A stretch of DNA of 64,000 bases, taken from NCBI GenBank assembly GCA_026770705.1, contig JANJGN010000001.1, positions 137,020,001-137,084,000 of the forward strand, read 5' to 3'. The translations under genes and the position numbers were made by a program. Positions 2,937-63,582 of this stretch are shown piece by piece. Each line of letters begins with the position of its first letter. The first letter of the stretch is position 1. The notes beneath the pieces are model-generated. The model was not told the DNA's origin. It did not search any database and saw nothing but the letters and a program-made list of their open reading frames with translations. The DNA is from Isurus oxyrinchus (lineage: Eukaryota).

Positions 2937-2946
2937 TTTAAAGCAG

Positions 2947-4492
2947 TTAGTCGCTTACCAAAGCTGTTGTCTCTGAGAGTTCCTTCATGCCCGTGGTGTG
3001 CTCAAATTGCTTCACTTGGGATGGGCTGAGGAAAGCGTCCTGAACCTCCCCATTGGCGGTGTTCTGCTCGGGTGGCATCTGGGGGTCCGTGCAGAGAGCG
3101 GGGTTTGAAATGTCCTCTGTTGGAGAAGCTTCTCCAATCCTCTCCCGCTCTGGGTCGTTGCTGCTCCCAGCTTCCCGGAGCTGGGGTGCGTTGAGCGCCT
3201 CACTGTTCCCAGATTCCTGGGGTTGTGGTACACTGGCCTCGTCGGGTTGTGGGCCAAGTTGGGGTGCGCTGGTCTCCTCATTGTCTCCAATGTTCTGGAG
3301 CTCGGGTGTCTCGTCCTCCAACTCCCTAGCGTTTTGCCGCTTCTTCTGTTGGCGCCGCCCTGGCACTTCTTCGTCCGAAGAGCTGCTGCTCTTGTTATCC
3401 GTGTCGGATAGGAGACGCCTCTTGACTCTTGTCTGGGAAGTGGCTTGGTTTCTTTTTAGCCCCTTCTTCCTTTTGGCTCTCTTCACCAGCTGCCACTTCC
3501 CCTGCTGCTTTCCCACTGCTGCCTCCTCCTCCTCCGTTGATTCGCTCTCCTGAGGAGTGGGAGGTTCAGGGGGCAGTGCTGTTGATTGGCTGTCTGCTGC
3601 CTCAATTTTTTCCTCCACCTTGTCTCTCTGTGTGTCCTCCTTTGTCCTGTTGTTCTCCCTGGGGTCCTTGGTAGTCGGAGTGACACGAGGCATTTCTTCT
3701 GCTTCCCCCTCGTTGGCTTTGGCTGCCTGTGTATAAGTACGGCAACGTTTGGGGCAGGTCTTGTAGAGGTGACTTGCCTCGCCACACAGGTTGCAGCACT
3801 TAGCCTGTTTACAGCCTTTTGTCTGGTGCCCTTCCTTTTTGCAGTTCTTGCGGAGGACAGCGCTGCAATTGGCCGCCACATGACCAGACTTGCCGCATGA
3901 GCGACAAAGTTTGGGTTGCCCAGCGTAGACAAGGTAGCCACGGCTTCCCCCGATAGCGAATCTGGAAGGGGGGTGGGAAACAGCTCCCTTACCGTCGGTC
4001 TTGAGCGTTACCTTAACCTGGCGGTTACATGTCCAGATCCCCAAATTATCTTTAACTTCAGTGCAGCTCCCAACCTTATCGAAGTACCTGGTAAGGAAGG
4101 TGAGCACGTCAGCGACAGGGACGTAGGGATTGTACAGATGCACCGTCGCAACCCGTTCACGGTGCAACGGTAGGGCAAAGAGTGGCTCCGCCGCCAGGAT
4201 CTTCATTTCTGGCAGGTCTTTCTTTTCCTCAAACACCTTCAGGAGTTTGACGCAAGCTGCCACGTGCTTGAAGGTCACATCAAAGAAACCAGCGCTGGGT
4301 GGTGGTGGTGGGGGGGGGGGGTGTGAAATCCTGTAGGCAGTAGATCTCCGCAGCCTCGAAACCACACAGCTTGAGTAGGATCCTCTTAGTGAAGAAGGTC
4401 CGAACCATTCCTGTTCCTTGCTCGCTGCCCTTCACCATGACTCGGATGGTGTTAGGTACCCCGTGGTGAGGGGTTTGACGGGTTATAGCCAT
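2947..4492 (-). pseudogene. Tx1 ORF1 (ZCCHC3-like CCHC zinc-knuckle protein), frameshifted
   Basis: ATG at 4492 (MAITRQTPHHGVPNTIRV...EIYCLQDF). The frame shifts in a (GGT)n/G-run at ~4297-4324 and continues SAGFFDVTF. Knuckles: CRSCGKSGHVAANC, (R)KNCKKEGHQTKGC, CNLCGEASHLYKTC. Confidence 0.85.
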
Positions 4493-4889: not shown

Positions 4890-5400
4890 TGGACTGTCAG
4901 TCGCCGGCTGGTTGGGCGGATCTTGCCATTGTCCCGCCCACCACCACCCCCCCCCCCCCCCCGGCTCCCTGGAAAGGAACGGTGATTGGTTTAAATGACT
5001 GTCAGTCGCCGGCTGGTTGGGCGGATCTTGCCATTCTCCCCCCCCCCCCCCACCCCCCACCCCCGCTCCCTGGAACGGAGATTGGTTTAAATGACTGTCA
5101 GTCACCGGCTGGTTGGGCGGATCTTGCCATTCTCCCGCCCCCCACCCCCCACCCCCGCTCCCTGGAACGGAGATTGGTTTAAATGACTGTCAGTCACCGG
5201 CTGGTTGGGCGGATCTTGCCATTCTCCCGCCCCCCCCCCCCTCCCTGGAACGGAACGGCGATTGGTTTAAATAACTGTCAGTCACCGGCTGGTTGGGCGG
5301 ATCTTGCCATTCTCCCGCCCCCCCCCCCCCCCCCCCCCCCGCTCCCTGGAACGGAACGGTGATTGGTTTAAATGACTGTCAGTCAGTGGCGGATTGGCAG
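4890..5400. repeat. Tandem minisatellite, ~88-101 bp unit, ~5 copies, containing CCAAT, TGACAG and GC-box motifs
   Basis: GATTGGTTTAAATRACTGTCAGTC recurs at 4984, 5080, 5172, 5260 and 5361. Each unit also has GGGCGG and a variable poly-C run. Confidence 0.9.
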
Positions 5401-6344: not shown

Positions 6345-7235
6345 AGACCCCCCCCCCCCCCCAGCACAGCCCCCAGCCCCCAACACAGCCCCAAACCCCC
6401 CCCAGCCCAGCCCCCAGCCCCACCCCCCCCCCCACAGCACAGCCCCCACAGCACAGCCCCCAGCCCCACCCCCCCCAGCACAGCCCCCAGCCCCACCCCC
6501 CCCCCCCCCACAGCACAGCCCCCAGCACAGCCCCCACAGCACAGCCCCCAGCCCCACCCCCCCCAGCACAGCCCCCAGCCCCACCCCCCCCCCCACAGCA
6601 CAGCCCCCAGCACAGCCCCCCCAGCACAGCCCCCAGCCCCACCCCCCTCCCAGCACAGCCCCCAGCCCCACCCCCCCCAGCACAGCCCACAGCCCCCAGC
6701 CCCACCCCCCCCCAGCACAGCCCCCAGCCCCCAGCACAGCCCCCAGCCCCACCCCCCCCAGCACAGCCCCCAGCCCCCAGCACAGCCCCCAGCCCCAGCC
6801 CCACACCCCCCCCCACAGCACAGCCCCCAGCCCCACCCCCCCCCACAGCACAGCCCCCAGCCCCACACCCCCCCCCACAGCACAGCCCCCAGCCCCCCAC
6901 CCCCACAGCACAGCCCCCCCCCACAGCACAGCCCCCAGCCCCAGCCCCCCACCCCCACAGCACAGCCCCCCCCCCCAGCACAGCCCCCAGCCCCCCACCC
7001 CCACAGCACAGCCCCCAGCCCCAGCCCCCCACCCCCACAGCACAGCCCCCAGCCCCCCACCCCCACAGCACAGCCCCCAGCCCCCCACCCCCACAGCACA
7101 GCCCCCCACCCCCACAGCACAGCCCCCAGCCCCCCACCCCCACAGCACAGCCCCCAGCCCCCCACCCCCACAGCACAGCCCCCAGACCCCCCCCCCCCCC
7201 CAGCACAGCCCCCAGCCCCAGCACAGCCCCCAGCC
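6345..7235. repeat. C-rich compound satellite (CCCCACAGCACAGCCCCCAG-type) at the start of PKD2 intron 1
   Basis: About 900 bp of CAGCA/CAGCC/Cn permutations, with almost no T on the + strand. Confidence 0.95.
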
Positions 7236-7371
7236 CGTCCCCAACAGTAATCCGGCCGGGAGGGGGGAAAGGTGTTTTCAATCAGGGTCTGGGATCCGCC
7301 TGAGAGGCAAACTCAATTCGACTCTTCAAGAGAGAACTGGGTGATTACTTCCCAGAATTGCAGAGGGACCG

Positions 7372-22432: not shown

Positions 22433-23322
22433 AATAAAAACAAAAAAACTGCGGATGCTGGAAATCCAAAACAAAAACAGAATTACCTGGAAAAACTCAG
22501 CAGGTCTGGCAGCATCGGCGGAGAAGAAAAGAGTTGACATTTCGAGTCCTCATGATCCTTCAGCAGAACTAGGTGAATGCAAGGAGAGGGNNNNNNNNNN
22601 NNNNNNNNNNNNNNNNNNNNNNNNNNNNNNNNNNNNNNNNNNNNNNNNNNNNNNNNNNNNNNNNNNNNNNNNNNNNNNNNNNNNNNNNNNNNNNNNNNNN
22701 NNNNNNNNNNNNNNNNNNNNNNNNNNNNNNNNNNNNNNNNNNNNNNNNNNNNNNNNNNNNNNNNNNNNNNNNNNNNNNNNNNNNNNNNNNNNNNNNNNNN
22801 NNNNNNNNNNNNNNNNNNNNNNNNNNNNNNNNNNNNNNNNNNNNNNNNNNNNNNNNNNNNNNNNNNNNNNNNNNNNNNNNNNNNNNNNNNNNNNNNNNNN
22901 NNNNNNCTGCCACTGCTCTTCAAGAAATGCCTACCTTGAAGTTCTGTTCGTCTCTGCGACAAGATTTCCGTATCTATACCTTGAGTGCACTACCATCCGT
23001 TCTTAATTAGCACATTCGTTTAGATAATATCACCAACTTCAACACCTCTGTGTTCTTTTGTTCTTTTGTCTGTGACATCTTTTGATGATCTGCTCCTATC
23101 ACTGCTTGCTTGTCCCTACAACCACACCACCCCCCTCCACTTCTCCTCTCCACCCCCACCCCCCGCACACACCTTAACACCTTAAACCAGCTTATATTTC
23201 ACCCCTCTCCTTGGATTCATCTATTCTGTTGAAGGGTCAAGAGGACTCGAAACGTCAACTCTTTTCTTCTCCGCCGATGCTGCCAGACCTGCTGAGTTTT
23301 TCCAGGTAATTCTGTTTTTGTT
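22433..23322. mobile_element. Young Penelope-like element with inverted termini, spanning an assembly gap
   Basis: The left ~150 bp is the reverse complement of the right end. Perfect 14-bp TSD CTGGTCTAGCCTGT at 22419-22432 and 23323-23336. Inserted into a LINE/SINE 3' tail. Confidence 0.85.
22591..22906. other. Assembly gap (316 N)
   Basis: Run of n. Confidence 1.
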
Positions 23323-38874: not shown

Positions 38875-39230
38875 TATTTTTTCTTTCTTGGAATGTAAGC
38901 ATCACTGGCAAGGCCAGCAATTGTTGCCCATCCCTAATTGCCCTTGAACTTCAGAGGGCAATTAAGCGTCAACCACATTGCAGTGGGTCTGGAGTCGCAT
39001 GTAGGCCAGACCAGGTAAGGGTGGCAGATTTCCTTCCCTAAAGAACATTAGTGACCCAGATGGGTTTTTAAGGCAATCGATTGTTTAATGATCACCATTA
39101 CTGGTTTTCAACTCCAAGTTTATTAACTGAATTTAAATTCCACTAGTTGCCATGGTGGGATTTGAACCCATGTCCCCAGGACATTAGCTGGTCCACGAGT
39201 CCGGTGACATTACCACTATACCATCATCTG
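38875..39230 (-). mobile_element. tRNA-derived SINE whose 3' tail is shared with a LINE
   Basis: Reverse complement of the SINE at 48375-48785; tail gggcaa...tgctggcc...gtgatgc. Confidence 0.65.
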
Positions 39231-44154: not shown

Positions 44155-44382
44155 GATGAGCGACTGGGTCGTGACAATGACATTCACCGAGAGCAAATGG
44201 AGCGTTTGGTGCGAGAGGAGCTGGAACGCTGGGAGTCCGATGAGACGGTGTCACAGCTCAGTCAGCACCTCGGAACGCCTCTGGGAATAAATGGCAGATC
44301 TCGGTCCCGCAGCTCCCGCCCATCCTCGTCTCAGTCTACTGATGGCCTGGAAGCTGGGGGGCTAGGAGGTAGTCATGTTTAG
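44155..44382 (+). CDS. PKD2: Polycystin-2 exon 15 (terminal coding exon)
   Basis: [29 protein letters not shown]...GGSHV*. Confidence 0.95.
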
Positions 44383-47040: not shown

Positions 47041-47369
47041 AGAACCTTTATTTATAAAGGTGGCTCTCGTCAAAACCGCACAAAGTTATGGCCAAAATAA
47101 ATGTATTTATTAATGTACAAGTAAATCATTTTAAGATGATGAAGCAAATTTCTGTTTGTCACTCCTGTGGAATTTTGATAGCTTGAGTGAATACGTACAT
47201 AATTTTCAGCCTTTTAGACTATCTCAGAGGAACCTTTCAAAGAAACCCAGCATTGAGCCCCTGATTTTAATTCCTCTCCCTCCCCTGCCCCATCTCCAAA
47301 CATCATCAAATGGATCATGTGTGTCACACTGTTGAACTATAGAAGGAAAGGTAGTTTTCAACATACAGC

Positions 47370-47513
47370 TCATGAAAGCTTCTTCATACAGAAGAGTTTC
47401 AAGTATGCAGTGCTTAGGAAGAAAATAGAACACTTAGTCCCAGATGATTCTGCCACAGATCCCATGCGATTGTGCCAATGCCCATGTCCTCAAGGTGCTG
47501 AACTCCTGTACAT
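47370..47513 (-). pseudogene. ABCG2: ABCG2 terminal exon 16 remnant, frameshifted
   Basis: tacag/ CTGVQHLEDMGIGTIAWDLWQNHLGLSV [~4-nt deletion] IFFLSTAYLKLFCMKKLS*. Confidence 0.88.
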
Positions 47514-48165
47514 CTGTAATGAAAAAAAAGAATCAAAAGGCATTAAACAAAAGAATTTTACATCTAGCAGCATTTACAGCACAAATTGGCCTATTGGCAT
47601 ATGGGCTGTTTCTACTCTTCACAAGCCTCACTCCACCCCTCTATCTCATCCTATCAGCATATCCTATTGCTTACTCCCTTGTGTTTATCCAGCTTCCCCT
47701 TAAATGTATCTGTACTATTCAACTCCCTGTGGTTGCAAGTTCCACATTCTGACCACACTCTGGGTGAAGATATTTCTCTTGAATTCCCACTGGATTTGTT
47801 GATGCCTATCTTATTTCTGGCCCGAGTTCTGAAACATTTGCCTATCTTATTGAATCCTCTTTGTATTCCGAATGACGTCTATCGTTAATATTAGATTCAG
47901 TGCTGGTCACAGACAATTAAGTCGAATAGTGTCAATAACATGATATGCATCAGGATTAAATTCTCGAGATAGTGTTCAGGGCCTTCTCTTCCCCTGAGGG
48001 AACGAGGCCAGCCTGTTCCATCTTCCTGGACACAATAAATGTCTCAGTCCTGGTATCATTCTAGTAAACCTTTTTTTTTTGCACCTTCACTGTTCCTCTC
48101 CATCCTTTTTATAAAATGCAGTTCAGAGCTGTGGCTAGCACTGATCAATTATAATTAATACTTAC

Positions 48166-48266
48166 AAGATCTTAATTGGGATAGGATTTGAGCAGTGACA
48201 GCCTTTCCCTGTATTTGACACGTTATAAGAAAAGTTCAGGCCGACAAATTCATTAACTATGAGATC
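48166..48266 (-). pseudogene. ABCG2: ABCG2 exon 15 remnant (extracellular loop 3)
   Basis: aacag/DLIVNEFVGLNFSYNVSNTGKGCHCSNPIPIKI/gtaagt vs ALQHNEFLGQNFC; phase-2 end. Confidence 0.78.
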
Positions 48267-48374
48267 CTGTTAAATCAAACCGATGATTACAAGTTACAGT
48301 AGGAGCCAGGACTAGGATTCACAGCACAGAATGACATTACTTTATTCATTGCAAACAGCCACTGAATACTGGAA

Positions 48375-48785
48375 ATGGTAGCATCATGGTTATGTTACTG
48401 GGCTCATAAACCAGGGGCCTGGATTTAGGAGTTGGGAAGATAAATTCAAATCCCACCCTGCCTTTTGGGGGATTTTTAATTTGGTTAATGAAATCCGGAA
48501 TAAGAAGGTAATGTCAGTAATGGTGACTGTGTAACTATTAGATTGTTGTAAAAAAAAACCCATCTGGTTCACCATTGTCCTTTAGGGAAGGAAATCTGCC
48601 ATCCTTGTCTGGTCTGGCCTATATGTGACTCCGGATGCACAGTAATGTGGTGAACTCTTAACTGCCCCCTGAAATGGCCTAAAGCTGGTCAAGAAGGTAG
48701 CTCACCAAAACCTTGGGCAATTGGAGATGGGCAGTAAAAGCTGGCATTGCAGGCAACACCCATATCCCATGCCTGAATAAACAAA
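48375..48785 (+). mobile_element. tRNA-derived SINE
   Basis: A/B-box-like head (ggtagcatcatggttatg...ttcaaatcccacc) and a tail shared with the LINE at 49920-50545. Confidence 0.65.
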
Positions 48786-49409
48786 ACTACAGTGCCTTGT
48801 CACTCAGCACACAGTTGTTATTTATATTCGTTCACAGGATGTGGGCTTCGCTGGCTGGGCCAGCATTTATTGCCTATCCTTAGTTGCCCTTGAGAAGGTG
48901 GTGGTGAGCTACCCTGCAGTCCCTGTGGTGTACCTACAGTGCTGTTAAAGGAGGGAGTTCCCAGATTTTGACCCAGCGACAGTGAAGGAACAGCAATATA
49001 TTTCCAAGTCAGGATGGTGAGTGGCTTGGAGGAGAATTTTCACGTGGTGGTGTTCCCATGTGCCTGCTGCCCTTGTCCTTCTAGATGGTAGTGCCTATGG
49101 GTTTAGAAGGTGCTGTCTAAGGAGCCTTGGTGAGTTCTTGCAGTGCACCTGCAGCATACAGTCTGCTTTAGCTATGCCAGTGGGATCTTAATATTCATTG
49201 CACTAACTTCCAGCAAGTGCTTACTTTATTCAGCTTCTAAATGTCATGAATGTATTACAGGAGAGATTGATATGGCACTTAAGTTTTCTTATGATGTCAT
49301 ACATCAATAATGTTCCCACAATAACTTAAGTGCCTAAGGACAAAGTGGATATCAACTAATAAAAGACATTTTATATTTGATTGTGTTGGCCACACAGACA
49401 ACTAAGTTG

Positions 49410-49800
49410 AATGGGATGTGGGATGTTATCTTATGAGGAAAGGTTGGACAGGTTGGGCCTGTATCCATTAGAGTTTAGAAGAATGAGGTGTGACCTTATT
49501 GAAACATGAGATCCTGAGGGGACTTGACAGGGTGGATGCTGAGAGGATGTTTCCCCTTGTGGGAGAGACGAGAACTAGGGGACATGGTTTAAAAGTAAGG
49601 GATTTCCCATTAGGCTGGCGATGAGAAGTAATTTTTTTCTGAGGGTAATGAATCTTTGGAACACTTTCCCAGAGAGCAGTAGAGGCAGGGTCATTGAATA
49701 TTTTTAAGTTGGAGGTAGATAAATAAGTTCTTAACTAACAAGGGAGTTGAAGGTTATCGGGGGTAGACGGAAATGTGGAGTTGAGGCCACAACCAGATCG
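49410..49800 (+). mobile_element. CR1 3' fragment
   Basis: ttatgaggaaaggttggacagg...gagtttagaagaatgagg...actagggg blocks. Confidence 0.7.
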
Positions 49801-49919
49801 GACTCCTGGCTAAAGATGGTAGTTTTGTGGAGTTTCTTCCACCAGTTAGTTGTTTAATTTTCCATCATCATTTATGACTGCATATGGCAGGACTGCGGAG
49901 CTTAGTTACCATTGACCAG

Positions 49920-51300
49920 ACACAGAACTGGCCAAGTCATATAAATACTGGGGTTACGAGAACGGGTCAGAGGCTAGGAATTCTGTGGCGAGTAACTCAC
50001 CCACTGACTACCCAAAGCCTGTCCACATTCTACAAGGCACATGTCAGGAGTGTGATAGTATACTCCACTTGCCTGGATGAGTGCAGCTCCAATAACACTC
50101 GAGAAGCTTGACACCATCCAGGACAAAACAATTTGATTGGCACCCCATCCACAAACATTCACTCCCTCCACCACTGATGCACAGTAGCAGCAGTGTGTGT
50201 ACCACCTACAAGATGCACTGCAGAAACTCACCAAGGCTCCTTAGGCAGCATCTTCCAAACTCTTGACTGCCAACATCTAGAAGGAAAAGGGCAGCAGATA
50301 CATGGGAACACCACCACCTGGAAGTTCCCCTCCAAGCCACTCACCATTCTGATTTGGGAATATATTGCCATTCCTTCACTGTTGCTGGATCAAAATCCTG
50401 GAACTCCTTCCCTAACAGCACTGTGGGTGTACCTACACCATATGGACTCCGGCAGTTCAAGAAGGCCGCTCACCCCCACCTTTTCAAGGGCAACTGGGGA
50501 TGGGCAATAAATGCTGGCCCAGCCAGTGAAGCCCACATCCCATAAATGAACTTTTAAAAAATATGATCTGGTTGTGGAATTGCTTAGCTCCATCTATCAC
50601 TTGCATCTTACGCTGTTTGGTATGCGAATAGTCCTGTGTTGTAGCTTCACCAGGTTGATACTTCATTTTTACGTATAGCTGATGCAGCTTCTGGCATCCC
50701 CTCCTGCACTCTCCATTGAACCAGAGTTAATCCCCTGGCTTGTTGGCAATGGTTAAGTGGGGGTTATGCTGGGCCATGAGGTTACAGATTGTGGTTGTAT
50801 ATAATTCTGCTGCTGATGGCCCACAGCACCTCATGGATTCATGGTCTCAAGTTGCTAGATCGGTTCGAAATTTATCCCATTTAGCACATGGTGGTAGTGC
50901 CACACAACACGATGGAGGGTGTCCTCAACGTTATGACGGGTCTTCATCTTCATAAGGACTGTGCGGTGGTCATTCCTACCGATACTGTCATGGACAGATG
51001 CATCGCGGCAGGCAGCTTGGTGAGGATGAGGTCCAGTATGTTTTTCCCTCTTGTTGGTTCCCTCACCACCTGCCACAGGCCCAGACTAGCAGCTATTCTT
51101 TTAGGGCTCGGTCGGTAATGGTGCTACCGAGCCACTCTTGGTGATGGACATTGAAGTCTCCCACCCAGAGTACATTTGTACCCTTGCCTCCCCCCTCGGT
51201 GCTTCCTCCAAATGGTGTTCAAAATTGAGGAGCACTGATTCATCAGAAAGAGAACCCCAGTAGGTAGCATTGAAAATGCTTGGGACAGTGAGATGAGTGT
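49920..51300. mobile_element. LINE fragments: 3' end on + (49920-50545) and endonuclease-region fragment on - (50575-51300); tail copies also at ~22278-22430, 42300-42490, 48825-49150, 54515-54840
   Basis: QRLGILWRVTH...STFYKAHVRSV; SFTVAGSKSWNSFPNS; tail gggcaataaatgctggccc; DSIGRNDHRTVL on -. Confidence 0.75.
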
Positions 51301-51329
51301 GATGGAGGAAGGCTCCATGTGTGTGGGGA

Positions 51330-53400
51330 GAGTGCTTACACGAAGCTCTGAAAGGCCCTGTCACACACACACACACACTTCTCCTTCCAGAATCCCTCGT
51401 GGTCTGGCTGCATGCAGTGGGGGTGGGGGTGGGGGATGCAGTGGGAGAACCTGCGAAACCTGTCAATGAAGTTGAAAGACAACATTACACATTATTCAGT
51501 AAAAGTGAATATATTTTCAGATTATAAAGTGACAAAATGTGTTCACCCGTGCAACCACTTGTGATCAGAATTTCTTAACTTTTCTAGGCCGATCACTTCT
51601 AGGTGCTGCCCTGACATCTGCAGCAGGGGTGGAGACAGCCTGTGCAGTGATTGGCCCTGTTGCCTCTGATGACTTCAGTATGCATCCTCTGGAAAGCTGA
51701 GGCCTTGAGGGTCCTGGCTTGCTTTGGCTGCCTTCCTGTGGGCCAGCTGCTCCCTCTGTGGTGACAGAGGATGAGGTTGACACAGGCCATAAGCAAAGGG
51801 GACTCGGAGGGAGAGACCAGCCCCTGAGTGGATGACCCAGGGGTGTGCAGCTGCCACCCCTCATCCCTTCGGGTGCCCAGGGACATCGGCCTGACTCTTT
51901 GAGGGGAAGGAGCACCTGAAGGGACATCGAGGTGCCCCGTTTCCCTCATGTGTTGCCGCAGCAGGAACTCACCCATAGCTCCCGCGATGGAGTGTGAGTC
52001 TGCACACACCTCCATGTTCTGCTAGACCAGGGTCACCATGGTATCCACCATCCTCCCCATGGAGACCTCCATACACCACTTCATCCGAGAGCAGGCGGAC
52101 ACACTCCTCTGCCTCACGTGCCACTCTATTGAGGGCTTCCAACAGCTCTGCGTGATGTTCTCTCACCTTCTGCTGACTCTCCACGATGAGTTGGAAGGCC
52201 GAATCCAGAGGCTCGTCATCTGACTCAGCCCTCCGAGTGCCAGGGAGCTCAGCTGAACCTGCCTCCTCCTGCTGCGGACACCAGATTGTGAATCCACCAA
52301 GCCTGATCTAGGTCCTACTGAGGTGTGTGTCTCTGCGCTGGTGCAGGGTGTGGGTAAGCGCTGTGATGGGTCTTCCAGGCTGCTTATTTCCAGCTCTCCA
52401 ATGGAGGAGGTGTCCTCTTTGCTGGAGGTGAGGACCTGGATGGAGCTGAGGGACTCTCTGGCTGAGGGTGTCAGTCACCTCAGAGCTTCCTGTGAACGAA
52501 AGTAGAGATATTGAGTGCATGGCAGCAGAGTCAAAAGCAGGAGAGAGAGAGACACTCACAGTTGTGTTGAGAGAGGGATGATGTGGTGCAGGATCCTCAC
52601 GTGAGTGTTCACTGCCGACCTCACCATCCCCACAGGCACAGTCCACACCCTCACCGGTCAGAGCGATGGCACACTGCTCAAAGTGAGTGAGGGGTCTCAT
52701 GTGGATCACCCCCTGGTCTGGGACCTCTCCCTGCTGTTGTGAGGCAGCTTCTCCTGCATGAAAACAGATGGAGAGAGTGTGAGCAGGACACATGGCACTG
52801 AGGGGAATGTTTGTGTGGTGAGCGGAGACATGGACAGGATGAGGACACGAGCTCTTTAGGGTATGAGCCTGATGGAGAAGTGAGGGTGTGTGTGAGAGTT
52901 AGTCGTGTTGTCCCTTGAGATGTGAGATCCGTGTGGGTGTGTGATGGGTTTGTGAGTGTGAGAGTTGAGAGTGATGAGGTGGTTGACTTACCCTGGGGAA
53001 CGGATGAGATCATTCATCCTCTTTCTGCACTGGATGGCTGACCTCCTCTGTCTCCGGTGGAGCTGACAGCTGCCGCCACCGCCTCCCAGGCCGGATTGGT
53101 GACTCTGTGGACCTCCTGCGGCCAGAGTGGGGGTGGAGGACATTGTGATGGCCTTCCACTGTGTCCAGCAGGCACCCCAGAGCCGTGTCACTAAATTTGG
53201 GATCATGTGTCACCTGGAGCAGTCCTGGTCTGTAGACAGGAAGCTCTGGCGTATATTTAAATATGGGGCCCGGAGTGAGGGAACACTGAGATCACGGCGT
53301 GGCAGAAAAATCTGAGCCTGCCCGCCAGCGATCCAGAGTGTTTCCCGTGAACGCATTATTAAAAAGGCGGGAGCTGCCGGAAATGGGATGGTAACGTCCT
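51330..53400 (-). mobile_element. PIF/Harbinger transposon remnant with a spliced Myb/SANT-like (trihelix) gene, decayed
   Basis: PKFSDTALGCLLDTVE...RRSAIQCRKRMNDLIRS, gtaagt donor at ~52991, next exon cag/EKLPHNSRERSQT at ~52755; TATA-like tttaaatat; stops and frameshifts. Confidence 0.7.
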
Positions 53401-53754
53401 GTGTCTTGATGGAGGTCTTTAAGGGGAGAGGGTGGTGGGGGAGCTTTGTCAAGGAATGATTTAGGAAGCCGAAGAGAGAGCTGCTAACGTGGGGCGTGGG
53501 GACAGGGAATAAACAGGACACCACAGTCAGAGGAAGCGGAAAGGATTTAAATACCAGGATGGGGAATTTGGAATTTGGAATCTAGGAGCAGGAACCAAAG
53601 TAGGTCAATGAATTTAGGGATGATGGGTGAAAAATAGGAGTGTCCTAAGGAAAAGTAAAATGAATGTTAGGTGAATCCAACATCCCAACCAGTGAAAACA
53701 GGTCAGGTCAGAATTTGGATTCCATAGTCCTGGATCTTTGATCTGAGTTTCCTC

Positions 53755-53819
53755 AGGGTACAGTTCCCACTGGCAGAGCAGGAGAGGGGGGTTACTCAAC
53801 ATCCAAAATCCCCGAACAT
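53755..53819 (-). pseudogene. ABCG2: Possible ABCG2 exon 14 remnant
   Basis: tatag/ATGTTCGGG..., reading MFG(G)F...QWELY if a 1-nt deletion is assumed. W and Y fall where expected, but similarity is weak. Confidence 0.3.
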
Positions 53820-53918
53820 CTATAAAAGCTTTCCCGCTTTTTTAATTCTGTCTAAATAACTCGGAAAGTTTCTGGTCTCTTTTTGTAAAGACAAACTAGG
53901 TCGTTGCGATATACTCAC

Positions 53919-54002
53919 AGTCATCAGGACAAAGATGAGCGACAGGATGATAGTTGCAACGTCCACTACATTCCCTCCAGCAGCTACAGCCAAGGTCAAA
54001 GC
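53919..54002 (-). pseudogene. ABCG2: ABCG2 exon 13, 3' half only
   Basis: ALTLAVAAGGNVVDVATIILSLIFVLMT/gtgagt vs MALAIAAGQSVVSVATLLMTICFVFMM; the 5' side is replaced by SINE sequence. Confidence 0.8.
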
Positions 54003-54849
54003 TTTATTAACTGAATTTCAATTCCACCAGCTGCTGTAGTGGGATTTGAACCTCGCTGATAGTCGATTCCATGGAATACATCCTAAGACTGTATAATCTC
54101 TCCTTGTAATATTAGCTCTTGGAGTACAGACCATTCTGATAAATCTGAGCTGCACTCCCTCTAAAGCCAATATATCCTTCTTGTGTGTGATCCAGGATTA
54201 CTCACAGTACTCCAGGTGCAGTTTAGCCAGAACTCTGTACAGTAAGGGAACTTGCAGGTGGTGGTGTTTAAGAATGAAATTAGGAAACCCTTCACCACAC
54301 AAATGGTGTTAGAAGTTTGGAACTCTCTTCTACAAACAGCAATTGATGCTAAATCAATTGTTAATTTTAAACCTGAGATTGATAGATTTTTGTTAACCAA
54401 AGGTATTAACAGATATGGGGCAAAAGTGGGTTTAAAGAATTAGGTCACAGATCAGCCATGATCTCATTGAATGGTGGAACAGTCTCAAAGGGCTGAATGG
54501 CCTCTTTTTTTACATATTCATTCACAGGATGTGGGTGTTGCTGGCTGTGCCATCACTTTTTCCCCATCCCTAATTGCCCTTGAGAAGGTGGTGGTGAGCT
54601 GCTGCCTTGAACTGCTGCAGTCCATGTGGTGTAGGTACACCCACAGTGCTGTTAGGGAGGGAGTTCCAGGATTTTGACCCAGCGACAGTGAAGGAACGGT
54701 GATATATTTCCAAGTTAGGATGGTGAGTGACTTGGAGGGGAACTTCCAGGTGGTGGTGTTCCCATCTATCTGCTGCCCTTGTCCTTCTAGATGGTAGAGG
54801 TTGTGGGTTTGGAAGGCATTGTCTAAGGAGGCTTGGTGAGCTCCTGCCC

Positions 54850-54960
54850 AACAGGCTTGAGGGGCTAAATGGCCTCCTCCTCTTCCTGTATAACATGCTT
54901 GAGGGGCAGAATGGCCTTCTCCTGTTCATGTATAACAGGTTTGAGGGGCAGAATGGCCAC
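54850..54960 (+). repeat. Three tandem copies of a ~42-bp CR1 tail unit
   Basis: (g)cttgaggggc..aatggcc...tataaca repeated three times. Confidence 0.75.
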
Positions 54961-55167
54961 ACATCATATTGATTTGGAAATAAATCACGATTCCTTTCAT
55001 GATTGTTGGGTCAAAATCCTGGAACTGGAGATAAGATACACATCTACCCGTCCGTATCCTGCTCCTTTATTCCATTAGCCTTTCTGATTATTTTTTTATA
55101 CCTGCCTATGACATTTGAGTTATTAATTTATATTTATATATATATAAATATATGGAATCATACTGAC

Positions 55168-55250
55168 CTGTTGTGAATCCCAATATGATTGGTTCTCATT
55201 AAGAAAAACACACACGCCAAAATCAGGCACAGGATCATTCCGATTGTCAC
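55168..55250 (-). pseudogene. ABCG2: ABCG2 exon 10 remnant (TM1)
   Basis: tttag/VTIGMILCLILACVFFLMRTNHIGIHN(R)/gtcagt; 83 nt; cf. ...GIQNR. Confidence 0.8.
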
Positions 55251-57723
55251 CTAAAGCCGAACAAGAGGAATCAGTTCACACGGATCTTTCAAGACAACCT
55301 AAATAAATAATAACAATCCCCAAATCTATATCCAATTATTATTAAAACCCCCTTTTCGGGTGAGATGTCAGACGGAGGCCCTGTCTGATCTCCTCAGGTG
55401 GATGGAAAAGACCCCATGGTCACTATTTGAAGACATGTAGGGAGGAGTTCTCCCTGGTCCAGGACAATATTTATCCCACCAACCAACCCAGATTAGAAAC
55501 AGGTTACCTGGTCATCATCATGTAACTGTGGGAGCTTGCTGTGTGCCAATTGGTTGCTGCATTTCCTGCATTATAACAGCGACGACACTTCAAAAGTATT
55601 TCCTTGGCTGTAAAGTGCTTTGGGACATCCTGAAGTCATGAAAGGTGCTAATAAAATGCAAGCCTTTCCTTACATTTGGTGTGTACTGCTGTCCCTCCTT
55701 CGAAAGTCCTAAACCAGCAATGTTATTTCAATGTTAATTCTTTCCAAATCTGGTGCTGCTGGCTCATGCGTTCACTGGGATGAACACATTAATGTGGGGC
55801 TAGAATACTTTAAGAACTCTCTTTGGTTCCCTTGCAGTTCCACACCCTAGTCACTGGTTGACACTGTGGAGCAGTAGAACCCTCACTGGTTTCCAGCTGT
55901 GTGAGAGCAAACTATGCATCTGAAAGTACTAGTTTAGTTGAATTGTAACTTGTTAATTATTTTTCACTATAAATATCAAATTAACTATTGCCATTCACCA
56001 CTAATTAGGAACTGGAGCCTAAAAAGTTCTTGCACTAAACTAATGCTAAGGAATCTTTTGGAAACAGCATGAATTACAAGTTGAGGTACAGGAGAGTTTC
56101 CACCAGTTTCCATCGCTCCACTATTGGCAGCTGTGCCTTCAGTTGCTGAGGTCATTAGTTCTAGCCCTTAGTTCTAAATTCTCCAAATCTCTCCACCTCT
56201 ACTTCTCCCCCCACCCCACCCCCACCCCCACCCCCACCACCTCTCTTTCCAAGATGCTCTTTAAATCCTACATCTTGAACCAAGCTTTTGGTCACCTTTC
56301 CTTAAATCTCCTTTTCTGTCTTGGTGTCAAATTTTGTCTGATTCCGCCCCTAGAGTGTCTTGGGATGTTTTACTATGTTAGAGGGCGCTCCATAAAGTTA
56401 TTGCTGTGGCCCAGAAGCCTCCCTCTGAAAGGCAGCTATCCAACGCCTTGTGGTCAGGCAAGATCCTGACATACCTTTGGGGAGCAGAGTGTCTAATGTA
56501 AATAGATCTAATGCAAGTGAGTCGCCAGTATACACAAGAGAATTGTTGGGTTGTTGGGCAAAGAGAGTGTCAACAAAAATCTTCTATCATGCCCAGTTTC
56601 AAGGGCTTTGGCTCAGAGATCATGCAGAGGGAATAAGGCAGAAATCCGCGGGTGTGTAAAGTATAGTCAAGAAATTATTATTTGCTTTGTTAATGTACTT
56701 AGAAAAGATTAACATGTTTCAATGACAGGCATCTAATATTTCAATGTTTGTTAATCTGTTTAAAACAATTTAGGTTAATGGATCAGTTAAAATAGCAAAG
56801 CATGGGAGGAAAAATATGAAGCATTCACGTATGACTCATGTAAATATTAATTTGCAGCTCATAATACCTTTTCCTTAAGTTTAAAAATGCCTTCTATTCC
56901 AAGCAGGCTATACCTTAGAGACTCAGCATGCAAAGGTTTTCTCTTCCTGGCCGAATTTTGTGACCTGAATTTCAATGGAACACAACAAGGGAGTGGAAAG
57001 TTGGGTATTGCTCTCTGTGAACACTGCCAATTAGAACATTTTTTTTTAAACTATTCATGTGCCCATGGTTAGGAACTCTTTTAATAGTTATCTACAACCG
57101 CTGCTGAAGAACAGGAAACAAGAACAGAAGCAATCTAATAGCGTCTCAGCTTTATCATCATCATTAGTAGCAATGTGACACCTTTCCAGAGCGGCATTAA
57201 GAGAGATGAACAAGTTGATTTTCTGAACATTGACTTGAAGAAAGTCCTGCATTTACACATCACCTTTCACCACTTCAGGGTGCACCAAAGCACTTCACAG
57301 CCAATGAAAATACTTCTGAAGTGTAGCCATTGTTGGAACATAGGAGATATGGCAGGTAATTTGCACAAAGCAAGATCCCACAAACAGCAATGTGCTAATG
57401 GCCACACAACCTGTTATGGGATTGTTTGTTCTTCGAATATCGCCAAGGGATCTTTCACATCCATCCGCGAGGACAGAGGGCACCTTGATTTAATGTCTCA
57501 TCCAAAATGCAGCAGTGCAGGGCTCCAGCAGTACTGGAGAGTCAGCCTTGTCTTTGTGCCCATGTCTCTGGAGTGGGGCTAAAGCCCACAATATTCTGAC
57601 TCAAAGGCAAAAGAGTCACATTTCCAGCTTTTATATGAAGTCAAGTGTGGCTGGCGCTGCTGCAAACAGTCTGCTGGCTCAGATAGACCTCTATTAAACA
57701 CAAGTAATCTCCCTGAGCCTTAC

Positions 57724-57970
57724 TGTTAAAATAGGGACACGGGCGTCACCCAGGCGTTTCTTGAATATTCGCTTGCATAACCACTTCAGCTGGTGGGAGA
57801 ATGATGTACATGTGATTTGTTGCTGGGAGAGTAAAACCAGTTGCAGCCTGCTATAACTTAACAGCTTTTCTAATTCTTACAGCAGCTCACTGAAGTACGA
57901 TGATGCACGATAAGCACAGACTAAACTGTCACAGCAGTGGGAGCACTCTGCTGATCAGTCATTCCGAAAT
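57724..57970 (-). pseudogene. ABCG2: ABCG2 exon 9 remnant with premature stop
   Basis: AYRASSYFSELL*ELEKL...ITCTSFSHQLKWLCKRIFKKRLGDARVPILT/gtaagg; TAA at 57879-57877. Confidence 0.82.
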
Positions 57971-59914
57971 CTACATCGACAGGTTGGGAAAGAATTAAGT
58001 AAGTTACACTGAGTTTTGCGTTTCATAGAATTGGACAGCACAGGGAGGCCAAGTGATCCATTGTGTCTCTGAAAGAGCAATGCAAGTAGTCCACCTTCCC
58101 CCTGCTCTTTGAGCCTGCTAATCTTCCCTTTTCCACGTTTTTATCCAAATCCCTTTTGAAACTCATTATTGAATCCACTTCCGCTGCCTGTTCAGGCAGT
58201 GCACATAGTGCTCACAAAAACCTACTGCCTGAACGTCTTTCTTGGTTTTGAAACTATTCACCAGCTGAGCACCCACATCTCTCCGCGATAGAGAATTCCA
58301 AAGATTCACCACCCTCCGAGTCAAAAAAAAGCCACCTCACCTCAGCCCAAAACGGCCACCCCCTTATCCTGACACAGTGAACCCTGGTTCAAACTCCCCC
58401 AGCCCATATAGTCCTTGTAACAATATAGTAACGTGAGAAGTTTCTGGCTACCCTGTAAATAACCTGCAGCCTCAAGGTGCACTTCATTACCTTCCGATGT
58501 GTAGTTTAAGTGAGAATTCCCTTAAGGAGGTACCTGCCCAGTGTAAGAGTAGGAAGGGTGCCTGGCTGTTATTATCTGATACAAGTATTGTCACCAGTTT
58601 TAGATTGCAGCTTCTGTGCCCATGTGTTTATTGAGTAAGTGGGTGCCCTCTCCTACTTTACTTTTGTCCATAATACCCCGGACATGGCCATGGGCTGAAT
58701 GGAGGGATGGGCCAAATTTACCTCCGTGAACATACAAACTGATACCTGACGATCATGTGTCGTGTCAAACACCAATACAGCACCATCAGTGCAAAGAATG
58801 TCCCAGTGCGTGTGTTTGAAGTGCCAGATCATGTTGGTAGCACTCCCTGTCTCTGAGTCAAGGGGTTGTAGGTTCATGTCTCAATCCAGGGCTTGAGCAC
58901 AAAAATCAAGTTCTTCATTGGCTGTAAAGCACTTTGGGACATCCAGTTGTCATGAAAGGTGCTATATAAATGCAAGTACCCCCGTGTTTTCCCAGAGGAG
59001 GCAGATGTGAAGGTTTTGTTGGGAGGGGGTGAGTTTTTGTGAAGATGTTTGAAAGGTGAGCAGTGTATCATTGGAACAGTATGCAGATAGAGACTCTGAG
59101 CACCAAGTCAGGGCATCTGAGTTAATCTATTATGGATACCCCAAAAGCATGTTTTCAATCACTTATCTTTCATTTTGGAACTGTAACAGTGACTGGCCTC
59201 AGGCATTGGGTGCAACTTGTGAAGATCTTGAAAAGAGGTTAAGAAAATAAGAAAACATTGACAAGAAATGGCTATTTACCCAACAATTTCAATTCAAAAT
59301 TTCAAAACTAAGATCAATACAATCGTTGTTTTAGGCAAGGGTATTACAGGATTATGGAGGCAAAGAGGGTAACTGGAGCTAAGACACAGATCACTCATGA
59401 TTCAATTGATTGGTGAAACAGGCTGAAGCGGCTGAATGGCCTCCTCTTTTTCCTGTGTTCTTAATTCTGTCCAGTCTGCTCCACGATAAAACTCTATTCC
59501 ACCAATGTAATCTTCTTAAGAAAGACTATGCAACAATCCCACTGCCTTTAAGCAGAATACATAACTCAATCCCACAACATATTCACATTCCTGGAAGTAA
59601 AGCCGACATCATGTTTCATATCACGTTGAACTTTCTTTGTATTTACCATTAACCCTGGAATATTCAGTTAGCTCTTTGCAGAAGATCAGGCCACAGAAGG
59701 ACTTGAAACAAGAATGAGAGTTTTAAAATGCAGCTGTGGTTGGACTGGAAGCCAATGTAGTGAGCACATTCCACATTGAACTCATACAGTCAGCAGACAG
59801 AGTCCATAGGATAGATTTGAACCTAGGTTCAAAAGGTGTTGAACTGCACTGAACTACATCCAGCTCCCTCTCTGTTAGTCAGGATCAAATGAATGAGAGA
59901 ACACAAACAGACTC

Positions 59915-60045
59915 AGTGGGGGTGGGGTGATGGTGGGGGGGGGGGGGGAATGGTGCTGGGGTGGGGATGGGGGGGGAATGGGTCTGGGGTGGGGATGGGG
60001 GGGAATGGGGCTGGGGTGGGGATGGGGGGTAATGGGACTGGGGAT
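59915..60045. repeat. G-rich simple repeat
   Basis: GGGGTGGGGATGGGGGGAAT-type units. Confidence 0.85.
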
Positions 60046-60119
60046 TATTTTCATGCAGCACCAGCAACAATACAGTGAAGCATTAAACAAATGATTGAAT
60101 TCCGTTGGATGTTAGATGG

Positions 60120-60197
60120 TGACCTGCACACATACTGGTATCAGTTTGATATCCATAAGGACATCAACAGGGTTGTTATGTGAGTGAAATTTGTATC
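60120..60197 (-). pseudogene. ABCG2: ABCG2 exon 8 remnant
   Basis: catag/ (G)YKFHSHNNPVDVLMDI vs ABCG2 GYHCEAYNNPADFFLDI; the 3' border is uncertain. Confidence 0.7.
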
Positions 60198-60594
60198 CTA
60201 TGTTGCTGAAAGAAAACGTATATTAAAGTATCAGCACTGAAAGACAGCTGATTAAGTAGAAAATGCTGGGTCACCCAAGTTGCTACCATATACATTTGGA
60301 AAATACTTTACCTTTACAGTAAGAAATGTTATTTTTTTCCGATATGCTCTTTGCCACTTATCTTTTCCACAAATCCTGCAGCCAAAAGCAAAATAAAAGA
60401 CCCATTTGCTTTTAAGGGGGAAACTGGAGAAACACATGAAGTAGAAATGGATAGAGGGATATGTAGATAGGGTGAGGGGAGACCTGTGGGGAGCAGGACC
60501 CTGTCGAGCTCAATGGCCTGTTTCTACGCCGTAACTTGTATGTAAAATAAAACAAAGGCCGGAATTATCTGGTCCCATTGCCTTCGGGTGTCAT

Positions 60595-60815
60595 AGGGGG
60601 CTGGGGGTGGTGGAGGGTAGGGGTGGGCTTTGGGGGGCAGGGGGTGCGGGGGTGGGGCGGGGGGGGAGGGTGGGGGGCAGGGGGTTGGGGGCGGGGGTGG
60701 GTGGGGCGGGGGAGGTGAGGGTGGGTGGGGGCGGGGGGTGCGAGGTTGGTGGGGGTGAGCTGTGGTGGGTGTGGGCTGGGGGGGGGTGGGGGGTGGGTGG
60801 GGGCGGGGGAGTTGG
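60595..60815. repeat. G-rich low-complexity tract
   Basis: Dense G-runs. Confidence 0.85.
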
Positions 60816-60899
60816 GTACAATATGGTGAGAAGGTCAAAGACGGTTTCACTCTGTGGTGAAGCCGGTTTGTGATCATTGGCTCCACCCGTCAATGTCGG

Positions 60900-61990
60900 G
60901 GCCGTGTTTCCTGCTGCTGCACCTCGGGAACCTCATTTCAATACTTTAGCGTCTCATCATAAGCCCTGCTCACTGGTATCAGAGCCCCTCGCTGGGCTGT
61001 CTGGGCACATCGGTGTGATTGCACGTCAACACATTTCACACTGTACATAAACCACGTGTGCCTGGTGAGCTGCACTTCACTCGGGACTTCGAGGTTTGTT
61101 TGCCGACCTTGCTTCAATGAGCGCTCACAGTCACCAGCCCCAGGCTTCACAGGCAGCACCACATCACTTTTCGGGGAGTTGATGGGCAGGTCTCTACCTA
61201 CCAGGTGGGGGTGGCTTTTCAATGGCTGCAGGGCTGGTGTTCATTTGGGGAGTGGGGAGAAGTGGCCTCAGGCAAGGGAAGAGGCTGCAGGGTGAGGGCT
61301 GTACTGGGAAAGGGGGGTATCCCAGAGTGTGTGTGGGGGTCATATTGATCTGTGCAAGTGGCCTCGTGAGGACTGAGGAGGCAGTGTCCAGAGGAGATGA
61401 GGCCAGATGGAGATGTGAGGGTGTATGTGAGAGAGTGAGTGGTGATGCCCCTTGAGCTGGCAGTGAGTGAGATGGGCTTGTGAGGATGTGAGTTTAGAGT
61501 GATGAGATGTTTGTCTTACCCTGGCGGTATGGGTGAGATCATTGATCCTCTATCTGCACTGGTTGACCTCCTGTGTGCAGCGTTGGCCACCACTGTCACC
61601 ACCTCTGCGGCCAGTAGAGGAGTAGAGGACATGGCAGCGGGCCTCCATAGCATCCAGAAGTCATCCCAGGGATGTGTCACTGAATCGGGGAGGGGGGTGG
61701 GGGGGTGGGGGGGTTGCACGCTTCTTGGCTTTTGGGGCCATGTCTTCACCCTGGGCTGTAAACATGGAGAAGTGTGCGCGCGGCTGCAGTTTAAATATGG
61801 TGCCCTGTGTGAGGAAGCAGTGAGGTAACAGTGTGGCGGGCAATTCAGAGGCCACCAGCCAGCGAGATGGTGTGTCTCCTGTGGCTACATAAGTAATGAG
61901 GCTGGAATGGGGTGATATGGTGCGAAAACCCATCATTGCAGCCAGCGGGTAAAATGAGTCTTTCCCTGCCCTGGGACGATTCCGCCCAAA
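60900..61990 (-). mobile_element. Second, diverged Harbinger Myb/SANT remnant
   Basis: MAPKAKKR...PRFSDTSLG*LLDA...QC.*RINDL with a gtaag donor at ~61519; ends at ...gattccgccc (TIR-like). Confidence 0.6.
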
Positions 61991-62916
61991 GTATCTGCGC
62001 CCTTCATCAATCCTAAAATACTCCCAACACTGGAAATTTCACATTCAGATTCCAACCATCTTTATTATTTGAACCACTGATCTGTCATCCATCATGTGGT
62101 GAGCACACAAGCCCGATGATTGCTAAATGTGCTTGCAGATATCTTCCAAGATGAACACTTCTAACTTCACTGTGTAGTCAATGAGCCTAAATGTTCAGTG
62201 ATGGACGAGTTGCTTACACCGGGACCGAGGGGGAGGGAGAGGGGGAAGAAGTATCCACTCAGGATGCTCCAGTAATCAGGAGTGTAGGGTAACAATATGG
62301 CAAAATGCACCAATCCACAATCCTACTGTGTGACATTCCACTATCACTTCCCCTAAATTTCCACATTTTCATGCTGATAACACATGATTGATATTCGTGA
62401 TTCTGGATAAACCTCAACAAATTGAAAATGTCTATCAACCATTACAAACCATTTGCCACAATACATCTCTCCCTTAATTATAAGTAAAGGATTAATACTC
62501 TCCTATATTGAAGGAGAGCAGGGTTGCTGTCCCCAGTGTCCTGGCCAATGTTTATTCCTTAGCCAGCATAAAACAGATGATCACACTGCTGTTTATGGGA
62601 TCTTACTGTGCACAAATTGGCTGTCACATTCCCTGCATTACAACAGCAAGTACACTTCAAAAGTGCTCCGCTGATTGTGAAGCGCTATGGGTTATGAAAG
62701 GCGCTATAGAAATGCAAGTTCATTTTCAAATCAGATGCTTCATGAAATATAATAATTATTTTCTTTTCTCTCAATTCCAGCTGTTCAGTTGGTTGGTTGA
62801 TTAATCTCTGTTTGGAGCTAGCTATACAGTCTGAAAGTGAATGACTAGCAGAAAAGCACTTAACAAACTCACAGAAAATATATACATTTCTATGCAGATT
62901 CATTCAAGATGCTTAC

Positions 62917-63061
62917 CAGTTGCTTTAAAGTGATCAATCGAATTTTTGGCAGTTGCATTAGTTTTCCATTGGTTAACAGTGTTAAGGAATCAAATTGCTT
63001 AAACATTGAATATCGTGGCTGGTGAACTGAGATGATGACAGTTTTCCCATGTCTTGCCAAC
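62917..63061 (-). pseudogene. ABCG2: ABCG2 exon 7 remnant (H-loop), frameshifted
   Basis: LARHGKTVIISVHQPRYSMFKQFDSLTLLTNGKLM, then a shift to TAKNSIDHFKAT/gtaagc. 145 nt; ~7 nt lost at the (F/Y)HG codons. Confidence 0.88.
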
Positions 63062-63432
63062 CTGAGAAGAACATACAACGAACATTTTTAAATATTAATG
63101 CCAAAACATTCTGAAACATTACCAGAATATAAACAGGTTAGATAAAGAAAGCCAGAGTTAAATTATACTGCTACATAATCTCTGGAACAGGCACACATTG
63201 AACAGCTCTTTGCAGCACCTGGCACTGGCATGACAGACTGAATGACCTTCTTCTAAATTTGTCCATCAATATGTATTAAAAATCTTGCATAAAACACATG
63301 TTTTCCATCCATAAACATTTATCACAAGATTTGGTCACACCTTTGTGTCAACAGTTACCACCTGTCAACATTCCCTATTCAATTTTACTATGTCAACAAT
63401 CACAATGTAGTTACAGACTCTGGCCAGTAGAT

Positions 63433-63582
63433 GTCACTGCAACACTGGGGATGAGTCACTACAACACTGGGGACGAGTTACTGCAACACTGGGGACGAGT
63501 AACTGCAACACTGGGGACGAGTAACTGCAACGCTGGGGATGAGTCACTACAACACTGGGGACAAGTTACTGCAACAATGGGG
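63433..63582. repeat. 22-bp minisatellite, ~7 copies
   Basis: GTCACTGCAACACTGGGGAYGA-type unit, head-to-tail with no spacers. Confidence 0.9.

Follow-up and report, generated by a model that had tools for sequence, protein, structure and literature searches.

In tetrapods, ABCG2 belongs to an ABCG2-PKD2-SPP1 block (available part of PMC7362505). The third extracellular region of the transporter, ECL3, holds a C592-C608 disulfide, and in ABCG5 the signature reads ISTGE and is part of an inactive site (both from the accessible text of PMC7756502). Rodents have an ABCG2 duplicate, Abcg3, which is restricted to them and of uncharacterised function (accessible text of PMC10221359). The shark locus analysed here, within a window of 64,000 nt (the whole stretch of DNA under study), shares both family and PKD2 neighbourhood with human ABCG2/BCRP and canonical shark ABCG2. 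It is very likely a non-processed pseudogene in a lamniform shark, represented here by its 3' half and derived from a divergent ABCG2 duplicate that we call "ABCG2-like", the name used in NCBI shark annotations.

PKD2 occupies positions 5878-44382 of the plus strand, with 15 exons and a 2733-nt coding sequence (910 aa) free of internal stops and frameshifts, and is identical to Carcharodon PKD2 at 896 of 904 positions (support of 99 in the tree), which identifies the host as a lamniform. It converges with the pseudogene, the stop codons being about 3 kb apart (44382 on the plus strand, 47370 on the minus strand), and the tail-to-tail arrangement proposed by the sequence-only reading is confirmed by the presence of this intact neighbour. 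Neither pkd2 nor abcg is mentioned in the accessible part of PMC9122587.

On the minus strand, eight colinear ABCG2-type exon remnants totalling 926 nt extend from 63061 to 47370, numbered here after the exons of human ABCG2. Profile scores are 36-115 bits for exons 7, 8, 9, 10, 13 (3' part), 15 and 16, against at most 10.4 bits for the best off-target in the whole window, which agrees with the seven clear colinear exons recognized beforehand. Exon 7 (62917-63061; 145 nt, 80 bits), encoding the end of the NBD with the H-loop, has intact AG/GT sites and matches ABCG2 best (PDB; E-value 1.2e-10 versus 7e-4 for ABCG5, 3e-3 for ABCG8 and 1e-2 for ABCG1). It is followed by exon 8 (60136-60197; 62 nt, 36 bits), by exon 8b (59167-59226; 60 nt, phase 1-1, 27 bits), an extra exon of the shark ABCG2-like clade that recurs in the models of Scyliorhinus, Heterodontus and Heptranchias, by exon 9 (57724-57970; 247 nt, 115 bits), and by exon 10 (55168-55250; 83 nt, 57 bits), which encodes TM1 and is open with intact splice sites. 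The 3' half of exon 13 (53919-54002; 84 nt, 46 bits) precedes exon 15 (48166-48266; 101 nt, 73 bits), an open ECL3 exon with an N-F-S motif, and exon 16 (47370-47513; 144 nt including the stop), which encodes TM6 and scores 64 and 25 bits in two frames. Splice sites, earlier described as intact, are so in exons 7 and 10 and at the exon-13 donor, but the exon 8b donor reads AT and exon 13 is without a proper acceptor. Two poly(A)-signal-like hexamers (47111 and 47052, within 47047-47111), on the same strand and 3' of the stop, are motif matches only. The NBD-then-TMD order of a reverse half-transporter is seen for exons 7-16; the window ends at 64000, and exons 1-6, of which 2-6 encode the NBD, lie beyond it. 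Rfam gave no matches in the whole window, and Pfam no families in five intronic GC-rich frames.

Frameshift-aware alignment reveals deletions of 7 nt in exon 7 (near 62954), 1 nt in exon 9 (near 57935) and 4 nt in exon 16 (near 47428), the first and last of which had been claimed, as had the in-frame TAA of exon 9, found at 57879-57877. Exon 8 measures 62 nt instead of the 84 expected from its orthologue P0003, and the corresponding deletion of about 22 nt near 60147 was placed by eye from the length of the exon and from the residues past the break, T-D-T, the frameshift aligner having ended at 60148. The in-frame donor of exon 8b is ATAAGT, with GT changed to AT. The first premature stop of the spliced exon 7-10 read falls in exon 8 at 60143-60141, where the reading of any spliced transcript would end, upstream of the first TM helix. 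A rescue of the frame by compensating deletions (-7, -22 and -1, summing to -30) was rejected, the stop at 60143-60141 staying in place with or without exon 8b.

Exons 11, 12 and 14 and the 5' half of exon 13 reach at most 4.2 bits when the whole window is searched with profiles in six frames (exon 14: 3.6 bits at best, with a local alignment score of 32 versus a shuffled mean of 35.7), and in local alignment to 47370-63100 the missing exons stay at shuffled-query level, against 99-118 for control exons. They are not concealed by a gap, since the sole N gap of the window lies at 22591-22906. The loss previously claimed for exons 11, 12 and half of 13 is thus substantiated by both searches and extends to exon 14, the lost exons being those for TM2, TM3, the greater part of TM4 and the re-entry helices that follow TM5. 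At the break, exon 13 abuts a repeat cleanly and without Ns: a dispersed repeat fragment on the minus strand (54003-54054), presumably SINE-like, ends exactly at the start of the exon-13 fragment and matches 39119-39168 with 88% identity over 50 bp, the match ending at 54003. The 54002/54003 boundary is probably the junction of the deletion that took exons 11 and 12 together with the 5' half of exon 13; a single event would have removed exons 11-13a and joined a repeat lying in an intron to the middle of exon 13, and a short CTT-GA look-alike on either side of the break suggests microhomology repair. With introns kept and several independent disabling lesions, pseudogene status emerges more strongly than originally claimed.

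Over covered columns, the remnant is 66-74% identical to the eight rows of the ABCG2-like clade (P0002-P0009: Scyliorhinus canicula, S. torazame, Mustelus asterias, Heterodontus francisci, Rhincodon typus, two of Chiloscyllium, and Heptranchias perlo), but just 41-44% to three canonical shark ABCG2 sequences (P0016, P0088 and P0031) and 35-44% to 27 bony-vertebrate rows. The maximum-likelihood phylogeny unites it with the Mustelus and Scyliorhinus like genes (98/93) in a like clade supported at 100/100, and a 39-row tree places it likewise; as sister to the carcharhiniform like genes, it takes a position fitting a lamniform. Grouping the remnant with canonical shark ABCG2 is rejected (delta lnL 283, p-AU 0.0099). 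It resembles the like genes further in exon 8b, in the Cys-less N-F-S and the C-H-C of ECL3 and in linkage to the PKD2 chromosome (2/2 species), and differs from them in being frameshifted, stopped and without three and a half exons. Judged from sequence, the remnant is thus a member of the divergent shark ABCG2-like clade and not a canonical ABCG2 orthologue, and its initial designation as an ABCG2 gene stands for subfamily descent, to which the best match of exon 7 testifies, and falls for canonical orthology. The duplicate appears so far only in sharks, and the 88/95 support for a shark-specific origin, coming from a tree without outgroup, neither establishes nor rejects it. The serine at the C592-equivalent of ECL3, earlier counted as a lesion (NFC to NFS), is dismissed as such, N-F-S being the normal state of the clade: the position is S, T or F in all six like-clade rows covering it and C in all 29 other covering ABCG2 rows.

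The like gene and canonical ABCG2 are found on equal-sized contigs in both comparable species (Heptranchias, 198,562,713; C. plagiosum, 45,129,243), as are the like gene and PKD2 in the two comparable for that pair (Mustelus, 202,110,868; S. torazame, 385,912,898); equal-sized longest contigs are here taken as one chromosome, adjacency not being implied, and all three genes are listed together in no species. The like gene and canonical ABCG2 are probably tandem duplicates. Of the two origins first offered for the remnant, the favoured one is that of a dead tandem-array member, as the like clade is distinct and lies on the chromosome of canonical ABCG2 in both Heptranchias and C. plagiosum; loss of the syntenic ABCG2 orthologue is not favoured, as the remnant falls in a separate clade. 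It is therefore very unlikely that the shark lost its sole syntenic ABCG2 (BCRP) orthologue and was left without a PKD2-linked efflux pump, even though the remnant occupies the position of tetrapod ABCG2 relative to PKD2 (as given in the available part of PMC7362505) and no lamniform canonical ABCG2 appears among the best 120 of 3466 matches. This absence says little, because canonical ABCG2 of four other shark genera (Scyliorhinus, Mustelus, Heterodontus and Rhincodon) is likewise absent among the same 120, which hold just three canonical shark sequences; exclusion of the remnant from the canonical clade, at 41-44% identity, and the canonical gene on the like-gene chromosome in two of two sharks weigh against such a loss.

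It is extremely unlikely that the gene is intact and only its assembly or consensus faulty. The window does contain an N gap, a read error could account for the 1-nt deletion, and of the eight like-clade models from other sharks four are incomplete, so that assembly or annotation of the locus may be difficult. However, the lesions are varied (deletions of 7, 22 and 4 nt, a stop, a donor change and two multi-exon losses), the junction at exon 13 is clean, and four frameshifts, one stop and one dead donor lie in the 926 nt of the remnant versus no lesion in the 2733 nt of the adjoining PKD2; under uniform errors, all four frameshifts would fall in the remnant with a probability of 0.004. The Carcharodon like protein was also not found, and no lamniform like protein occurs among the seven matches of one search or the best 120 of 3466 of another, while Carcharodon PKD2 is present in the searched database. 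The same absence speaks weakly against the remnant being a dead partial copy, or a dead additional copy, of a like gene surviving intact elsewhere in the genome, which is highly improbable given that the remnant is PKD2-linked and branches where the single-copy lamniform orthologue is expected; consistent with such an extra copy are the fused two-copy ABCG2 models of Chelonia and Ophiophagus, the four zebrafish paralogues (accessible text of PMC8696203) and an amino-acid divergence of the remnant no higher than that of intact orthologues. At the protein level, the branch ratio to carcharhiniforms is 0.87-0.93 for the remnant versus 0.43-0.57 for lamniform PKD2, a relative excess of 1.6-2-fold; at outgroup-invariant sites no excess indicative of relaxed selection was found (20/177 changed in the remnant versus 23 and 24/177 in intact catshark genes and 16/130 in Mustelus). 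The like clade was not recovered in seven of the nine chondrichthyan genera with PKD2 found, which hints at repeated loss among chondrichthyans.

The living ABCG2-like genes belong to the ABCG2 family (P0003, E-value 1.6e-196), keep Walker A and the Walker B Glu, and have TMDs 73-80% identical between orders; in Scyliorhinus, Heterodontus and Rhincodon the model stays open all the way from the NBD to the C-terminus. The Q-loop Gln is lost in all eight models, and so is the signature Gly, as scored on orthologues, the corresponding exons of the remnant lying outside the window; among the other rows, Gln is present in 29/30 and SGGE in 30/30. The clade's signatures read ISDGE, VSDGE, VSEGE, VSAGE or LAAGE, and equivalents of Q126, G188, C592 and T435/N436/F439 are wanting. 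Full-length models carry an N-terminal extension of about 150 residues, of low confidence, and the low-confidence AlphaFold model of an intact catshark orthologue (pLDDT 56, pTM 0.37) served for helix positions only; residues 1-190 of P0003 match solely unnamed or generic ABCG clusters in the ESM Atlas. The BCRP-type export of xenobiotics, urate and porphyrins initially attributed to the locus probably does not apply, since living orthologues are without two nucleotide-site consensus residues.

Like ABCG5, the like-clade genes are altered at the third signature position, but they are ABCG2-derived, also miss the Q-loop Gln and have no known partner subunit. Rodent Abcg3 is likewise an ABCG2 duplicate, reportedly with an "unusual ATP-binding domain", as the title of Mickley et al. 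2001 is said to put it, and presumably lies near Pkd2 in mouse, although its origin is probably separate from that of the shark clade (the trees are built without Abcg3). Going by these residues, the like gene might, tentatively, be a weakened or non-hydrolysing subunit, a partner or regulator of canonical ABCG2 and not a pump, an old paralogue lost in lamniforms; if so, the case would parallel Abcg3 of rodents and provide a natural test of ABCG2 as an asymmetric heterodimer. The literature searched yielded no description of an ABCG2 paralogue of sharks whose nucleotide site is doubly degenerate and, for white shark with ABCG2 or gene loss in Lamniformes, nothing on the PKD2-adjacent locus.

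The duplicate would have arisen before the Hexanchiformes/Galeomorphi split, probably beside canonical ABCG2 on the PKD2 chromosome, and would have diverged fast before dying in the lamniform lineage, a loss possibly tolerated through redundancy with canonical ABCG2. The pseudogene may be tens of millions of years old; its sequence predicts that it makes no transporter and is most likely inactive now, any transcript probably being directed to nonsense-mediated decay. It is most likely a case of ordinary duplicate-gene loss and does not demonstrate that a relative of the white shark lacks BCRP-type efflux. Orthology at the shark PKD2 locus is nevertheless corrected, the PKD2-proximal gene being a divergent paralogue. 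The lesions, where shared, could mark relationships among lamniform genomes, and the shark paralogue, with two degenerate motifs in its nucleotide site, may interest ABC-transporter biologists.

The exon-7 translation of the decayed minus-strand ABCG2-family remnant (63061-47370), used as a protein query, gave 7 proteins out of 11 candidates, every one of the 7 a shark 'ABCG2-like' protein, and a catshark ABCG2-like query added Heterodontus to this set. Profiles built exon by exon from seven of the eight like orthologues (Heptranchias excluded) and run over the whole window in six frames recover eight colinear minus-strand pieces (27-115 bits, 926 nt in sum), i.e., exons 7, 8, 8b (an extra exon of the like clade), 9, 10, the 3' half of 13, 15 and 16, which we take to follow human ABCG2 numbering. 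The same search gives at most 4.2 bits for exons 11 and 12, the 5' half of exon 13, and exon 14, which in a second test score no better than shuffled queries; judging by helix positions in a catshark protein model of low confidence, these exons would encode TM2, TM3, most of TM4 and the re-entry helices.

The surviving exons carry multiple lesions. Frameshift-aware alignment shows deletions of 7 nt in exon 7, 1 nt in exon 9—together with an in-frame TAA at 57879-57877—and 4 nt in exon 16, while exon 8 measures 62 nt against 84 expected, by eye a probable 22-nt deletion. Exon 8b requires a phase-1 end, where the donor is AT, not GT, and exons 7-10 spliced as they stand run into a stop at 60143-60141 with or without 8b. 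The exon-13 fragment starts at 54002, immediately behind a repeat piece (88% over 50 bp to a copy at 39119-39168) whose alignment ends at 54003, and 54002/54003 is a clean deletion junction. The substituted ECL3 cysteine, counted as a further lesion in the sequence-only reading, is none, S, T or F being found in all six like-clade rows covering the site.

Other elements interrupt the remnant's introns. Intron 6 holds a 22-bp unit in tandem (6.8 copies, 63433-63582), and intron 7 a 64-nt minus-strand stretch (60312-60375) flanked by good AG and GT, which matches none of the ABCG2 orthologues tested and whose splice-like flanks are probably due to chance. Two related GC-rich insertions (~51500-53400 in intron 13 and 60900-61950 in intron 7; 70-77% identity in part), one of them within the interval lacking exon 14, have broken frames without a Pfam match, which presumably resemble the Myb-like gene of PIF/Harbinger transposons.

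The convergent PKD2 gene serves as a control for assembly error. The gene is complete (5878-44382, plus strand; 15 exons, 2733-nt CDS, 910 aa, no internal stops), with GT-AG in 14/14 introns. Of 904 residues that align with Carcharodon carcharias PKD2, 896 are identical, apart from small in-frame indels in exon 1; the two group with support of 99 in a tree of 11 rows, which makes the host a lamniform that is near the white shark but apparently distinct from it. PKD2 shows no lesion across its 2733 nt, and were errors uniform over both coding regions, the probability of finding all four frameshifts in the remnant would be 0.004. Consensus error would also not typically produce deletions of several bases, a stop, an altered donor and the loss of multiple exons at two places, and the only N gap of the window lies at 22591-22906. 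The PKD2 C-terminus (44370-44382) agrees with Mustelus; the different end of the Carcharodon isoform X2 model (P0123) is possibly a splice or model difference. GC-rich minisatellites lie upstream of PKD2 exon 1 (4947-5385, a 92-96 bp unit repeated ~4.5 times) and in intron 1 (6349-7236, ~900 bp), the degenerate 12-bp unit of the latter being a source of long spurious ORFs. Head-to-head with PKD2 is a decayed minus-strand LINE (1-4431), which we assume to be of L1/Tx1 type, with ZCCHC3-like RNA-binding domains (E 3.7e-25) and a zinc knuckle in ORF1 (2950-4431) and an ORF2 broken across several frames with a weak RVT_1 match.

For phylogeny, 36 of the 121 proteins from the two protein searches were picked by name for lineage spread, with unnamed matches excluded; two fused models were divided and two model tails cut back. 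Identity of the remnant to the like-clade rows is 66-74%, as against 41-44% to three canonical (BCRP-type) shark ABCG2 sequences and 35-44% to bony vertebrates (27 rows). Both the 39-row tree (support 92) and the 21-row tree (98/93) place it as sister to the like genes of Mustelus and Scyliorhinus, where a lamniform orthologue is expected. The AU test rejects a tree that forces it together with canonical shark ABCG2 (p-AU 0.0099), and canonical BCRP is not its identity. The remnant belongs to the ABCG2 family by descent and is orthologous to the genes of the shark ABCG2-like clade. In the 21-row tree, which has no outgroup, the like genes and the canonical genes of sharks share one side of a branch (88/95), a result compatible with a shark-specific duplication. 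The Chelonia and Ophiophagus models (P0010, P0014) are two ABCG2 copies fused; their second halves cluster with other turtle copies outside the shark like clade, pointing to a separate sauropsid duplication.

In Heptranchias and C. plagiosum, the like and the canonical gene have longest contigs of equal size (2/2 species with both listed), as do the like gene and PKD2 in Mustelus and S. torazame (2/2), which indicates a common chromosome but not adjacency; the gene order may be PKD2, like, canonical. No lamniform canonical ABCG2 occurs among the best 120 of 3466 matches, an absence of little weight since these also lack canonical genes from four other shark genera. Among the matches listed, the like gene was unrecovered in seven of nine chondrichthyan genera with a listed PKD2.

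The branch ratio relative to carcharhiniforms is 0.87-0.93 for the remnant and 0.43-0.57 for PKD2, i.e., 1.6-2 times higher in the remnant; however, 20 of 177 outgroup-invariant sites are altered in it and 23 and 24 in intact catshark genes, which counts against faster change. With 4-5 indels and assumed indel-to-substitution ratios of 1:8 to 1:15, 0.035-0.08 substitutions per site would have accumulated since its death. Shark substitution rates are slow, and the gene would at a rough estimate have died tens of millions of years ago. We found no paper on a shark ABCG2-like paralogue or its loss in a search covering few subscription journals; ABCG2 duplications and losses are described for birds, turtles and teleosts in the parts consulted of PMC7362505 and PMC8696203. 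Very probably, the remnant is a genuine non-processed pseudogene left by a duplicate gene, and an ordinary one.

In the living like genes (models P0002-P0009), the Q-loop Gln (human Q126) is replaced in 8/8 (His in five, Tyr in three), as is the signature Gly (G188; Asp in five, Ala in two, Glu in one), whereas among the remaining 30 rows Gln is present in 29 and SGGE in all. None of the 8 models has lost the Walker A Lys or the Walker B Asp-Glu, and 7/8 have the H-loop His; the models also differ at the TM2 equivalents of T435, N436 and F439. Judged from these residues, the like-clade ATPase may be weakened. Transmembrane-domain identity of 73-80% between shark orders suggests constraint. Full-length models carry an acidic N-terminal extension of ~150 residues, predicted with low confidence. 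Half of the models (4/8: Mustelus, both Chiloscyllium and Heptranchias isoform X3) are incomplete. The gene may have low expression or poor annotation, or it may be undergoing decay in several lineages. In the portion consulted of PMC7756502, the degenerate ABCG5 signature ISTGE, altered at the same position as in like-clade genes, is part of an inactive site, and in that of PMC10221359 rodent Abcg3, an uncharacterised ABCG2 relative, is cited for its unusual ATP-binding domain. It is a tentative and rather unlikely idea that the degenerate like paralogue acts as a partner or regulator of ABCG2; if true, it would be more interesting than the pseudogene.
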